Below are positions 1,413 to 61,938 of a stretch of DNA of 64,000 nucleotides, piece after piece (position 1 is the first letter of the stretch; each line of letters opens with the position of its first letter). The stretch lies in contig OZ024743.1 of NCBI GenBank assembly GCA_964016885.1, positions 1,612,001 to 1,676,000 of the forward strand, read 5' to 3'. This stretch comes from Eledone cirrhosa. Taxonomy: Eukaryota. Position numbers and translations under genes: made by a program. Below the pieces are notes generated by a model. That model was given only the letters and a program-made list of their open reading frames with translations, did not search any database and was not told where the DNA came from.

Positions 1413-1623
1413 AAACACAAGTGGAAGCTTAGTAAAATCGAAGCTTTGGCTGTGGCCAAGCAAAGTCGACTTACAATAAGGAATGAGTAGCAAAGCACTC
1501 AATAAGGGTAGGTCCTTAGAGTAATAACATACGTTTAAATAGCCTGACAAATTGAAAATTGCGGTTGGCAAAACCCAACGATTCAATACCAAAACAACGA
1601 AAGAACTAATCAGGTTAGAACAG

Positions 1624-1759
1624 ACCTGGACAGATCGAACGATATTCTACTATAGGTCCGATATGTTTCTATGAAATCCGAAATTATTTATCCAACTTAC
1701 GTAACACGTAAGCTTGTCGTATTCCATGACCGAACAGAGGATTCATTTCATCAACAGGC
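1624..1759 (-). ncRNA. Type I hammerhead ribozyme, UUGAUGA core variant, long helices II and III
   Basis: Minus strand: gcctg-TTGATGA-a atgaatcc...ggatttcat a-GAAA-ca t atcgga...ttcgat c tg-TC-caggt. Helix I gcctg/caggt, GUC site. Lies in a TA-flanked element at ~1413-1933. Confidence 0.7.
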
Positions 1760-2251
1760 ATTCCGTTCTATGGCCTCAAACTCGTGTGAAGAAACTAAAT
1801 GCGACCGCCACAATAGACAGCATTCAAACATTTCGTTGTCACGTGTTATTTCCAACAAGGGAAGCAACCCCCGGTTTTTGTCGGATAAGTTCAAAGTGTT
1901 AACAAAGGAAACAATATTTCCGTTAACCATTCCATATATATATATATATATTTATACTCGGATTTCTTTCCTAGAGTGCTTAAATTATTTGTGACTAATT
2001 CCGGTATTTTTTATGAAAGAAAACCGCGATAATATTGCTTTTTGCTGAACTCCTTATTGTAGAGTTTTGTTTTGGAATGTTTTTTTACTGTTGTTTCTTG
2101 TAAACAAACAGTCGTCTCATTCTGACGTCACCAGCCCTGTCTTTCCACATGTGCGTTTTATTTTTCATAATCACGCATGATGGTGAACTACCCTGTTTTT
2201 AAATCCCTTTTTGGCATAATAACCAGTGAGAAATTTTGGTTATCGAGTTGA

Positions 2252-2331
2252 GCTCTGCTGAGGATCGAATTCCAACCGTGACCATCTCCACTGAAAGTTT
2301 TCGTAAAATAGTCTTCAAGACTATACAGAGC
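2252..2331 (+). ncRNA. Type I hammerhead ribozyme with G12A substitution (probably inactive copy)
   Basis: gctctg-CTGAGGA-t cgaa...ttcg t-AAAA-tagtc ttcaa gacta-TA-cagagc. All three helices pair, but GAAA reads AAAA at 2305. Confidence 0.65.
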
Positions 2332-2769
2332 ATTTGTAGTTGTCCCAAATTGAAGGATGAGTATTTTAAACTTTATTTTATCATGAGTTAAGGCTCTATT
2401 GATTCTTCCCTGGATTTCACTAAATTCTGTTGGATGAATCTATATCCTGATTCTTTTTGAGTTGAGTTTGAATTATTTTTCCCACATCTTACGTTAACTA
2501 TTTCTCCCATTTTGACGCTATAGTCACTTATATATTATGGAATACTGTTGGCTTTTTGCTACAATATTTTCTATACCTTTCATTTATATATATATATATA
2601 TATATATATTTATATGTATATATATATACATATATATATAGTCCTGTAGAATCTCATATATATTAAAACTTTTATACTCTGCAATGTATTGAGTACCTTA
2701 TTTACTGTGGTTACCTCCGATTCAACCCGGAATAACGTACCGTATATATATATATATATATATATATAT

Positions 2770-57799: not shown

Positions 57800-57967
57800 C
57801 AGCAGCAGCAGCAGCAGCAGCAGCATTAGTAGTAGTAGTAGCAGCAGTAGTAGTAGTAGTAGTAGTAGTAGTAGTAGAAGTAGTAGTAGTAGTAGTAGCA
57901 GCAGCAGCAGTAGCAATAGTAGTAGTTGTAGTAGTAGTAGAAGCGCAGCAGCAGCAGTAGTAGTAGT
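57800..57967. repeat. (CAG)n/(TAG)n trinucleotide tract
   Basis: Seen directly. Confidence 0.95.
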
Positions 57968-60079
57968 CGATATTGCTTGCCCGGTTTCTACAAGAACGGA
58001 AAAACGCGAGAAAGAAAATTGCCAATACTTAAAAGAGAATGTGGAATTGCCGTCAAGTTGTTATGTTAATTGTTGTTGAGACAATGGCAATAAGTTTAAA
58101 TGATTGGTTTGAAGATGTTGGACAGAGAGGTGAAATTTCTGACTCTATTGCAGATTGTTTGTTTGGCACTACAAGAACCATAAGAAAGGTGCCAGCTAGC
58201 TAAGGCCGTGGGATGTAGCTTGATTATTTAGCAATCCAATACTGGCAGAAGAAGAACAATAAAATGTTGAGTAAATAAAAGAAATGATAATAATAACAAG
58301 AATATGAAAACAGAAACTATCCCTATAATAATAATATGTGCTCTAGGAATGATAAAAACACACAGAGAGACAGATACATAACTAAACCCCCAGGTCTTAT
58401 AAATATATACAACATACAGAAAATATCCCTACTAGGCACTGAATACATGTTACCAAGAGTACTTTCAATACAATAGAAATAACAATACACACACAAAACA
58501 TTGCACGTACCCATGGCACACAGAGCTGTGCTCGGTTATGTGGTAACAATACGCTATAAAAATAACACGCCTACTACGACTACTACTAATAATAATTGTT
58601 TCTATTTTTGGCACAAGGCCAGCAATTACCCAGTACATTACTGGTACTTTATTTTATCGACCCCGTAAGGATGAAAGGCAAAGTTAACCTCGGCGGGATT
58701 TGAACTCAGTCCGTAAAGGGACGTAACTGTGCTGAAAAGCATGCGATATACCCTCTATCGATACTGCCAATCCACCGCCCTCGAACTTTAATAATAATAA
58801 TAATTGTTTCTACTTTAGGCACAAGGCCAGCAATTTGAAGGGGGGGGGGGTAGATTAAATCGACCTCAGTGCATTACTGGTACTTTCTGAAATCAGAACG
58901 TTAACAATATTAATAACGGTTTCTTTATTTGATTTAGGCACAAAGCCAACAATTTAGGGGGAGGAGTAAGTCGATTAAATCGACCCTGGTGCGTTATTGG
59001 TACTTTATTTTATCGACCCTGTATGGATGAAAGGCGAAGCTAACGTTGGCGGGAGTTCTTCTAATCGTGTCCAAAACATAAAGAGCAGGAATAAAAACCA
59101 CAAGGTATCTTTGTCAGACGCTGTAACCATTCTGTTAAATATGTTATTGTTCCGTAAGAAAGGTCTTTCCTTATACACCCACGACTCGTGTATTGTTACA
59201 ATAATAACCCACGTGTTATTACAGTAATAACAATCTAGTTATTACAACATAACATGGGATGGCAGAAAAGGATTAGCAGGAATCTATACTTTGCGTCTCC
59301 ACACGTGTCTGGAGTGAATCTCCCTGCGCAGATGTTCACCTGTTTTACACCCAGCCAAAGAATATAGCAAGCCTCACACATTCATTCATAGCAGTCATGG
59401 GCATGCACGTCCACCTGGTACAGATTCCTGAAGAAAGAAAGGCCAAAAGACGGCGTTTATTTCCGATGTGACGTCCTGGCCCCTTGCTTCCGGCAAGACC
59501 TCCCCTACACTCCGGCACCCTAGCTCCACATATACAACATTCAAATGTTTTTATTACGTTATTGTTTTCGTAAATGTCCTGTGCTGCCCATAATGTACAA
59601 GTAGAACATTGGGGCAATTTAATCGACTTTCCACTCCCCCTCAACCTGTTGGCCTTGTGTCAGAAATAGAAACAATTATTATTGAATGATAATGGTTTCT
59701 TTATTACCTACACATAGCTTACATCTAATGATGGACAATGTAGGTTGGTAAAAGTGAATACAAGAGTGTGTGTATATGTTTGTAATTACAACAATAACTC
59801 AATTTAACACGATGTATGTTGTTATTGTAATAATATTATTGCAGTAACGCGTTGAGAACAGTTGATCATTTAGGGAACATTGTTTTTTGACCGATCATTG
59901 AACCCGGAGAGTAGGTAAAAATAGGTGATCGCGTTGTTTCAACTTACTTAGAACAAGGAGGACAATGACCTTCCACATGGACTTCGTGACTGGTTGGAAT
60001 GTGAGTGATGGATGGAAGAAAAAACTATGACCTAGGGTTTATTGAATTAAAAAGCGGACCAGGTCTTAAAATCAGCCCG

Positions 60080-60314
60080 GGTGTGTTTTCACTGTTCTCT
60101 TAAGTCGACACTGACTAACAGACTGGTGAGGGCTAGAGGTGTGTTTTTACTGCTCAGCTAAGACGACACTGACAAACTGACTGATGAGGGCCAGAAGTGT
60201 GTTTTCACTGCTCAGCTAAGATGACACTAACTAACTGACTGATGAGGGCCAGAAGTGTGTTTTCACTGCTCAGCTAAGGTGAAAGTCAGAGGTGTGTTTT
60301 CACTGCTCAGCTAA
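60080..60314. repeat. 58-bp minisatellite, ~3.6 copies
   Basis: gtgtgttttcactgctcagctaag...ctgatgagggccagaa recurs at ~60081, 60139, 60197 and 60255. Confidence 0.8.
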
Positions 60315-61348
60315 TGCGCGTTCCGTTTGCGTTTCAATCTTTGTGAAATAGCTATGACATCGGTTTTTCGTAGCATATTTTCCAGCTAATTTAAAAAAAC
60401 CCAGTCCTGTGGCCCACCGGACATTTTCCAAATGTTGGTATGATTATTTTACCTCGAGGTACACATACTAGAGAACATTACTGAATTAATTTTGGGGTTT
60501 CACGAAAGGTGTGTTAGATTGGAGAAAATGGAAAAAGCGGAAGACGATGGGTTGGAGAGGCCAGATAGCAGGTGGAGATGAGGAAGAAAGAAACCCAGAG
60601 GGGGTTAGTGGGGGTAGAGCAGAAGTGTGGGGAATAGCTGTAGGTCGGCGACAGGGTCACATCGAGGGCAATGAGGGACGGGAAGTAGAACTGCATAAAT
60701 GGTTCATGCCATGATCCACTGTTTGATATTCTTCGTAATGTAGTCCGTGAAGCATTTTAAACATTTTATGAATGTTTTAAGACTTTTAACCACGATTTAC
60801 CAAATAAGTACATGTAGTATTTGACACAAAATGCAAATTTATTGCACAAAATTAGATTTATAATTGTACAAGCAGGGGCCAACTGCACAAAATATGATTT
60901 AGAACTATACAAGTAGACGTTAACTACACATGCAGGGGTCAGCTGTATAGTCAGAGGTCACGTGTATAAGCAGGGTTTAACTGTATAAGCAGCGGCTGAC
61001 TGTACAAGCAGATGTAGAGAGATTGCCGAATCCAAGCAGGAGTTAAAATAATGACTGAATCCATAATAACTAAAAGTCCCACCATCTTATTTTCTTGTAT
61101 CTAAGGTCTCGAGAAACCAACATTTACTATTATTTGGTGGATTGGCAGTTTCGGTAGAGGGTCGGACGCTATGCTTTGCAGAATAGAGTAGCGGCCCTTT
61201 ACGGTCTGAGTACAAATCCCGCCAAGGTTAATTTTGCTTTTCATCCTTACGGGGTCGATAAAATAAAGCACCAGTAATGTACTGGGGTAATTGCTGGCCT
61301 TGTGCCAAAAGTAGAAACTATTATTTTAATTTTAAAAAAAATGTTCAC

Positions 61349-61938
61349 TCTACATGGCTGAATACAATAAATGTAATCTGAGTTTTTCGAATATTAATAA
61401 TTGTTTCTACTTTCGGCACGAGGCCAGCAATTATCCCAGTGTATTAGTGGTACTTTATTTTATCGACCCCGTAAGGATGAAAGGCAAAATTAACATCGGC
61501 GGGATTTGAACTCAGATCATAAAGGGCGGCAACTCAATGCTGCAAAGCATGGCGTCCGACCCTCTGCTTTGCTTTTTCGAATATTAATAATAACATTCGA
61601 TTCGTTTGCAATTATGCAAACAAGCCTCATTTTTAAAGCCATGTCAGTAGAATGAACCCTTCATCCTTGCTCTTGTGTTGGCATGTAAACAGAACTGCAG
61701 ACACTAATATTTCTGGGTATCACCCTTCATCAGTACAGCTCACTGTTCACCTGCCAACTGTCAGAGCTAGTGAAAATATATGCTATTTTCTAAAATATTA
61801 CACAAGAGCAAGAATGAAGGGTTCATTCTACTGACATGGCTTTAAAAATGAGGCTTGTTTGCATAATTGCAAACGAATCGAATGTTATTATTAATATTCG
61901 AAGAACTCAGATTACATTTATTGTATTCAGCCATGTAG
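61349..61938. mobile_element. Fold-back HHR element with left arm interrupted by a SINE
   Basis: 61349-61400 plus 61573-61678 is the reverse complement of 61800-61938; SINE flanked by duplicated tttttcgaatattaataat. Confidence 0.75.
61693..61740 (-). ncRNA. Type I hammerhead ribozyme
   Basis: agctgta-CTGATGA-a gggt gat accc a-GAAA-tattagtg-TC-tgcagtt, GUC site. Confidence 0.82.

Follow-up and report, generated by a model that had tools for sequence, protein, structure and literature searches.

The animal non-LTR (non-long terminal repeat) retrozymes described in PMC7229834 are non-coding tandem units of 170-400 nucleotides (nt), low in GC, with stable folds and one type I hammerhead ribozyme each, for which circle-templated tandem cDNA and Penelope helpers were proposed; the word "cephalopod" is absent from that text. 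Vertebrate retrozyme families of 51-972 nt, in arrays of up to 300 units, were subsequently given a Penelope origin and Penelope mobilisation by Li, Clavereau and Pollet (bioRxiv 10.64898/2026.07.22.740005), whose evidence is co-occurrence and similarity to pseudo-long terminal repeats (pLTRs) in Xenopus, without molluscs, and who suggested local array growth. Endonuclease-bearing (EN+) Penelope elements, such as Poseidon of Anolis and Neptune (PMC11167929; 10.1101/2021.04.23.441226), insert as tandem and inverted 5'-truncated arms at AT-rich or microsatellite targets. Their "tail" is the interval between two internal reverse transcriptase (RT) start sites and lies downstream of the hammerhead, and in vitro a Penelope protein was found to nick AT-rich DNA on both strands and to initiate at the two internal positions bounding the tail (PMC11167929). 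A 64-kb stretch of the Eledone cirrhosa genome (assembly GCA_964016885.1, contig OZ024743.1, positions 1,612,001 to 1,676,000), here called the window, probably contains about 11 non-coding hammerhead repeat families of the animal non-LTR retrozyme kind that carry the Penelope two-start-site footprint and were likely made by Neptune-type RT-endonucleases on probably circular RNA.

The basis of the whole analysis is DNA sequence, in which hammerheads are predicted and from which cleavage and circles are inferred. Within an assembly of 3.0 Gb the window belongs to a 379-Mb contig, 1.6 Mb in from its start, and units are numbered from the predicted cut. The families and elements concerned are the following.

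1413..1933, minus strand: F1, multi-copy and non-coding, between TA tracts, with only a hammerhead-like 3' half that lacks a canonical CUGANGA (15 copies; 3464 first-look candidates).
1950..2585, plus strand: F2, a 638-nt unit with a core at 2258 (G12A in the window copy); copies stop about 271 nt past the cut.
3013..4292, minus strand: F3, 2.35 tandem 535-nt units and a short inverted arm, with cores at 3256 and 3791, a helix II of 51 nt, and ends about 190 and 70 nt past the cut.
4612..7580, plus strand: a 5'-truncated Penelope element, Neptune-type by its motifs, with RT end, CX4CxxC linker and GIY-YIG domain (5218-6396, one stop), and inverted pLTRs with U3-A8 hammerheads at 4782 (minus) and 7475 (plus).
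14026..17209, minus strand: array A, 6.65 units of 467 nt with 6 hammerheads and an 83-nt inverted arm, ending at phases 311 and 251.
27483..33643, both strands: array B, 10.2 units (minus) and 3.0 units (plus) of 467 nt diverging from 32236/7, with 13 hammerheads; its outer ends fall at phases 303 and 226, and A and G alternate at site 346.
45628..45733, minus strand: F7 copy, core at 45697.
46346..46758, plus strand: F8, core at 46608, helix II of 50 nt.
47673..48812, both strands: F9, a 542-nt unit in two inverted arms, whose cores at 48000 (minus) and 48575 (plus) have a weak helix II; the arms end 262 and 178 nt past the cut.
48962..49139, plus strand: F7 copy, core at 49040.
49276..49587, plus strand: F10, U3-A8 core at 49389; the monomer takes the full predicted hammerhead fold.
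49600..50343, both strands: F11, a 486-nt unit present as inverted arms, with cores at 49749 (minus) and 50195 (plus) and a helix II of 53 nt.
50450..50826, minus strand: F12, a weak U3-A8 motif at 50687.
51270..52057, plus strand: F13, multi-copy, with a dead hammerhead remnant near 51520 (without G12), interrupted by a SINE-like insert.
61330..61938, minus strand: F14, inverted arms broken up by a SINE-like insert, with a core at 61733.

A strict type I hammerhead descriptor matched 27 times in the window, once in the reversed window and in none of 60 block dinucleotide shuffles, so that the motifs stand far above shuffled sequence, a comparison proposed in the sequence-only reading that first pointed to them. 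Permitting a U3-A8 core, a hammerhead variant known to be active, gave 30 matches, with none in reversed and complemented controls; a third descriptor gave 31, gaining 50687, with none in the reversed control. These 30-31 motifs have the CUGANGA and GAAA core, a UH site, three helices and an open helix I. That reading had listed 35 full-length type I hammerheads, and 30 of these pass the descriptors (3256, 3791, 4782, 7475, six in array A, 13 in array B, 46608, 49040, 49389, 49749, 50195, 50687 and 61733). Three more are intact in family copies: the pair listed as 47928/48568 (cores 48000 and 48575) fails for its weak helix II, with core, GAAA and helix I kept in most of 21 family copies, and of 29 aligned copies of the motif at 2258 only the window's has G12A, GAAA being retained in the other 28. 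The remaining two have no valid core, since among the sampled copies most like the window's a canonical core occurs in 0 of 15 for motif 1624, and G12 is replaced by C or T in 25 of 25 for motif 51518; in the copies sampled, F1 and F13 thus fall outside the type I hammerheads. The motif at 45697 on the minus strand had not been listed.

It had also been claimed that the helices differ in sequence and still pair, and this was borne out by compensatory changes. In a gap-free alignment of six distinct motifs, few and related in that all are A/B-type, both sides changed in 6 of 14 pairs of helices I and II, and the covariation score of 0.443 compares with 0.155 after shuffling (0/500) and no more than 0.114 after sliding. 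The Rfam comparison suggested in the same place gave nothing in the window at the gathering score; array B reached 34-38 bits (best 37.7, E 6e-6 to 9e-5) with Hammerhead_HH9, whose cut-off is 52, and the Rfam models appear to cover these variants poorly. Most motifs have a short and palindromic helix III, and among 12 folded monomers only F10 and F11 took the full hammerhead fold, so that cleavage as dimers would be expected for most families. The analogy is with the minimal and variant hammerheads of Penelope elements (PMC4209133), where a short palindromic helix III likewise implies dimer cleavage and many families occur per genome; different from those are the helix II extensions of 35-90 nt in several families here, and the U3-A8 cores.

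Of the roughly 14 families proposed from the sequence, 11 non-coding families with a valid core are left, one of the others being the pLTR of the autonomous element and two (F1 and F13) coreless; A and B are homologous sisters (320 of 429 aligned bases identical). A, B, F2, F3, F9 and F11 consist of tandem non-coding units with one type I hammerhead each and without long terminal repeat, primer-binding site or polypurine tract, and no Penelope frame was found within units. The families are dispersed in many copies, with 1792 end junctions for B and 1053-3464 first-look candidates each for F1, F3, F9, F11 and F14, counts that are lower bounds and in some cases inflated by TA flanks. High-copy status covers families other than F8 and F12, and genome-wide searches were made for families other than F7, F8 and F10; no other copies of F12 were found among the DNA retrieved, the joint F12/F13 search being dominated by F13 matches. 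By the features tested, from sequence, the repeats are animal non-LTR retrozymes moved as non-autonomous Penelope-like elements, with cleavage and circles predicted. They share with the retrozymes of PMC7229834 the non-coding tandem units, the single type I hammerhead, low GC and stable folds, and differ in units of 467-640 nt rather than 170-400 and in insertions that have two arms and end at fixed points within (TA)n.

The insertions provide the principal evidence for how these families move. They sit in (TA)n, as the sequence-only reading had noticed (30 of 36 sampled motifs have (TA)5+ within 600 nt, against 38% of random positions), and usually comprise two divergent arms of 0.1 to more than 20 units, whose outer ends are both 3' ends and, in each family, fall at two set positions that lie downstream of the predicted cut and are separated by 60-120 nt. 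In a first B sample of 26 rows, chosen on unit identity only, an outer 3' end lay at 299-303 or 226-235 in all 26 and both were present in 17. The exact junction of the family-B long end with TA occurs 1792 times in the genome, and the first 40 of these formed a second sample: one duplicate was dropped, one was too short, one locus held two insertions, and 4 ran off the retrieved DNA. Among the 35 insertions fully seen, 25 had an inverted second arm ending at 229-234, 7 were one-armed, 2 were fusions and 1 was odd. The duplicate was an identical B insertion present twice, 17.7 kb apart (L277 and L278, G000:C1:55.96-55.99 Mb), as a segmental or assembly duplicate, and one of the pair was excluded from counts. 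The same two-site geometry was seen in A (311/251), F3 (190/70), F9 (262/178) and the autonomous element (about 140/75), and F2 and F11 showed mostly one fixed end. Inner arm junctions carry short overlaps or templated inserts, as would be expected if two cDNAs were joined, and poly(A) ends were not found at the insertions. Fold-back copying of the short arm from the cDNA of the long arm was ruled out, the short-end arm being the longer in about half of two-armed loci.

Judged on these junctions, the two-arm, two-end geometry is the footprint of the Penelope tail, and the likeness to EN+ Penelope elements extends to the tandem and inverted arms, the AT-rich target and the position downstream of the hammerhead. 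The families differ from those elements in lacking a coding frame, in tails of 60-120 rather than 30-40 nt, and in arms that can reach 20-30 whole units. MRC1 and other non-autonomous elements of Chlamys (10.1101/2021.04.23.441226) mostly lack hammerheads and have 3' ends in common with autonomous partners, unlike those here. The footprint also bears on whether the motifs could have arisen by chance or decay within AT-rich repeats that LINE (long interspersed element) or Helitron machinery dispersed. Absence of Rfam matches at the gathering score, modest single-motif folding z-scores (+1.0 to -2.9) and the LINE RT frames in the window would suit such an origin; it is largely refuted by the empty shuffles, the 2 matches in reversed samples against 50, the compensatory changes, a tail geometry identical to that of the autonomous Penelope element and the missing poly(A) ends, and is considered very improbable.

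A family that is a candidate source of the enzyme has a truncated copy in the window itself. The element at 4612-7580 has a GIY-YIG Pfam match and a CGRSNCGTC linker, and is Neptune-type (Neptune or Nematis clade) by the motif description in Craig et al. (C-terminal GIY-YIG, CX2-5CxxC linker and CCHH) and not by a tree. Its family has 20228 candidates in the genome, with many 775-amino-acid (aa) frames at 97-99%, so that an autonomous EN+ candidate partner with intact frames exists; the nearest named relative of the window's Penelope protein comes from Octopus bimaculoides (74%). L042 and other Neptune-type copies were further observed to have a separate frame of about 400 aa upstream of, and overlapping, the RT frame. 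Both fusions among the 35 B insertions join B, with no TA gap, to the same second Neptune-type family: in L266 a 2.7-unit B arm is followed by a 40-nt inverted B piece and the 3' half of the Neptune-type element, and in L288 B units pass directly into the pLTR end of that family. Its end was found in 1 of 39 spaced samples, which were drawn as 10-kb pieces at round-number positions of the larger contigs (49 in all, 39 in the first set). Several points count against this assignment. The two fusions may be promiscuous, or deletion products between neighbours; an older A-type copy (L121) is fused to a Hydra-type element; and no family is homologous to the pLTRs of the two Neptune-type families compared, for which reason descent of the families from those pLTRs was rejected. 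The evidence here, insertion footprints and fusions without homology between families and the pLTRs compared, is thus of another kind than that of Li et al. The earlier proposal that Penelope machinery mobilises the non-coding hammerhead elements is nevertheless upheld by the fixed 3' ends and inverted arms, the young Neptune-type family with intact frames and the two fusions. We regard mobilisation by Penelope machinery as very likely, and a Neptune-type helper for B as a candidate on present sequence. A broken Penelope-type element at 8084-10101 (plus strand) has a CxCX5C-like linker, Hydra type by Craig et al.; its relatives are common in the spaced samples, and the descriptors used found no hammerhead in it.

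Young arrays are uniform and their variants are common to all units of both arms, from which it follows that arrays were mostly built at insertion; from the sequences compared, this appears highly probable. It was suggested instead, in the route favoured by Li et al. 2026, that arrays grow later, solo pLTR-like monomers inserting first and expanding by unequal crossing-over in the manner of satellites. Periods of 4 and 6 units in one arm of the older arrays L113, L253 and L289 are a mark of local duplication and speak for some growth of this kind, by which the longest arms could have expanded. Dispersed arrays are 99-100% identical with uniform units, their inverted arms share variants and alternations, and their arm lengths are non-integer with outer ends fixed, all of which later growth explains poorly, and as the general route it is improbable.

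The nature of the RNA copied into such arrays is less settled. At least one cut site is crossed by 51 of 62 arms, some of 10-29 units, and therefore the linear cut monomer is not the usual template. Two arrays alternate two alleles in both arms. In the window B array, site 346 alternates between AGAGAGGAGA and GAG (long arm: 8/9 changes, p 0.04), and in one A array of 21+4 units 51- and 53-nt alleles alternate in register (17/20, p 0.001). A dimer template may explain the alternation, with assembly error as an alternative, and the A/G alternation in the window may be read as a dimer with one edited unit. Folded as circles, the units give stable structures (z -8.3, -7.2 and -4.9). Circles offer the simplest route by which a new variant in one unit could spread into whole uniform arrays, and on these patterns we somewhat favour them; a circular template, rather than only a linear multimer, is given the same modest preference.

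Other observations sit less easily with circular templates, and some of them would be expected if the same Penelope machinery copied long linear read-through RNA, uncut or cut only at its 5' end, with the ribozyme a passenger and circles without a role. One B variant taken for private was tested genome-wide and marks a sub-lineage of 283 units with arms of up to 29 units; the idea that each array has its own haplotype was ruled out for that variant, and long uniform source arrays therefore exist that could supply linear templates. In L025 and L040 a variant occupies the same unit rank in both arms. A phase slip occurs in both alternating arrays, the alleles of the A array differ in microsatellite length, and the window B arms are out of register. 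F1 and F13 were amplified without a valid core, the hammerhead is dispensable in vitro (PMC11167929), and 8 of 9 frog retrozyme dimers did not cleave (bioRxiv 10.64898/2026.07.22.740005). Inner arm ends cluster just past the cut in the second B sample (10/57, p 0.003) and in F3 (8/31, p 0.0002), which points to occasional copying of cut linear RNA or to RT stalling at helix I, the latter able to mimic such clustering; the clustering was absent from the first B sample (2/46) and F9 (1/24), and the interval scored was partly chosen after the data were seen. With linear copying, each new lineage would need a one-unit bottleneck followed by whole uniform two-armed arrays, and copying linear RNA could not by itself lengthen these; the helices covary, cores are kept across at least 16 families, and junctions at the cut are clean. 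Linear templates alone are accordingly judged unlikely, though a good deal less so than later array growth.

On the preferred reading, of Penelope-mobilised retrozymes with mainly circular templates, read-through RNA would be cut by its hammerheads, mostly as dimers given the palindromic helix III, and part of it ligated into circles. A Neptune-type endonuclease would nick both strands of a (TA)n tract, two RTs would begin at the two internal sites on one RNA and run past the cut site again and again, and microhomology would join their cDNAs at the far ends. Monomer circles would yield uniform arrays and dimer circles alternating ones, and old arrays may have been lengthened further by unequal exchange.

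Among B changes fixed in whole arrays, A>G is in excess. In a first A/B sample, array-fixed changes found at one locus only included 10 A>G and 1 T>C; at 39 new loci the array-fixed counts were 7 to 0 (of 11), and single-unit changes 7 to 7 (of 57). Across 58 close B loci, distinct fixed changes comprised 25 A>G, 11 T>C, 7 C>T and 8 G>A of 66, and singletons 12, 15, 17 and 16, respectively, of 110 (fixed against singleton: Fisher p 0.07 for A>G against T>C, p 4e-5 for A>G against the rest). The outgroup subfamily has A at 21 of the 25 fixed A>G sites, and likewise at site 346, and seven A>G sites are grouped in one hairpin. A general rule was rejected, the excess being absent in four older families, F3, F9, F11 and F2, whose T-rich units show 17 T>C and 3 A>G; it was not seen in 9 divergent B loci (3:2), and neither neighbour preference nor pairing at the A>G sites was significant (paired 19/25 against 62/97, p 0.34). 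ADAR editing of the RNA is given an even chance as the cause, the rival being an RT error bias. Two observations belong beside these counts. In L284 (G000:C1:61850948-61858248) A>G accounts for 7 of the 8 fixed changes that set it apart from the young B unit, and every unit of both arms carries them. The inversion centre of array B (32188-32286) is a near-perfect palindrome, from which read-through would give kilobases of perfect double-stranded RNA, a substrate for ADAR and RNA interference.

Genome-wide, the 49 spaced pieces held 50 motifs against 2 when reversed, or about 100/Mb (bootstrap 57-153 per Mb), which extrapolates to 1.7-4.6 x 10^5 motifs per genome. The 36 motifs of the first 39 pieces form 16 clusters, of which only 4 are common to the window, and the family count of the genome is therefore far from saturated. 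The window is 5-fold enriched, with 31 motifs in 64 kb, 19 of them in arrays A and B, and 100 kb of flanking DNA contains 19, roughly double the average for the genome, so that a subtelomeric hotspot was dropped. The description "unusually dense and diverse" thus suits the genome, and the window less so, its excess lying mostly in two arrays. In PMC7229834 the comparable loads are at most 120,000 copies in the 28-Gb axolotl and about 5000 in a mussel, obtained with different descriptors.

Some other repeats of the window deserve mention. A very abundant short two-armed element (38780-38970, 4430-4560 and 13880-14010; in 13 of 49 spaced samples) retains only a hammerhead 3' half (GAAA, long helix III, UC and helix I arm) and may represent a minimal parasite able to do without a ribozyme. 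A relative of F13 lies at 38400-38730; it, F13 and F1 reached many copies with a dead or absent core, and they provide natural controls on the need for cleavage. LINE-type RT elements occupy 18891-21300, 33696-35894, 39921-45164 and 52350-53021, two of them adjoining kilobase TA tracts; that at 33696-35894 has an open frame and starts where array B ends, and that at 39921-45164 has two open frames. A 58-nt tandem repeat at 60081-60278 has CTGATGA without GAAA and is not a hammerhead by the descriptors.

In summary, the retrozyme class and its Penelope link are already in print (PMC7229834; bioRxiv 10.64898/2026.07.22.740005), and the new evidence lies in the two-arm footprints, shared variants, alternating alleles, Neptune-type fusions and the A>G excess in lineage-fixed B changes. 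The literature searched, with subscription papers, Dfam and Repbase outside its scope, yielded no account of retrozymes in cephalopods, of tails or inverted arms at retrozyme insertions, or of ADAR edits that became fixed by way of such elements. Questions open in print are the enzyme that mobilises animal retrozymes, circles as template, and the purpose of Penelope hammerheads, and these become directly testable in young families with thousands of readable insertions, exact start sites and a candidate helper. A load of about 100 motifs/Mb, far above the published mussel, frog and axolotl counts examined, also puts many natural ribozyme variants on offer. A more far-reaching picture is offered tentatively, as somewhat less likely than not: the genome would hold about 300,000 hammerheads in dozens of retrozyme families and preserve their entire life cycle as DNA, and a Neptune-type RT would roll from two start sites round monomer and dimer circles, sometimes jump between helper and parasite RNA, and fix ADAR A-to-I edits of the circle as heritable lineage markers, with editing driving the evolution of the parasitic circular RNA. 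If the A>G excess is due to ADAR, RNA edits would be inherited through circular RNA, in an animal group famous for editing.

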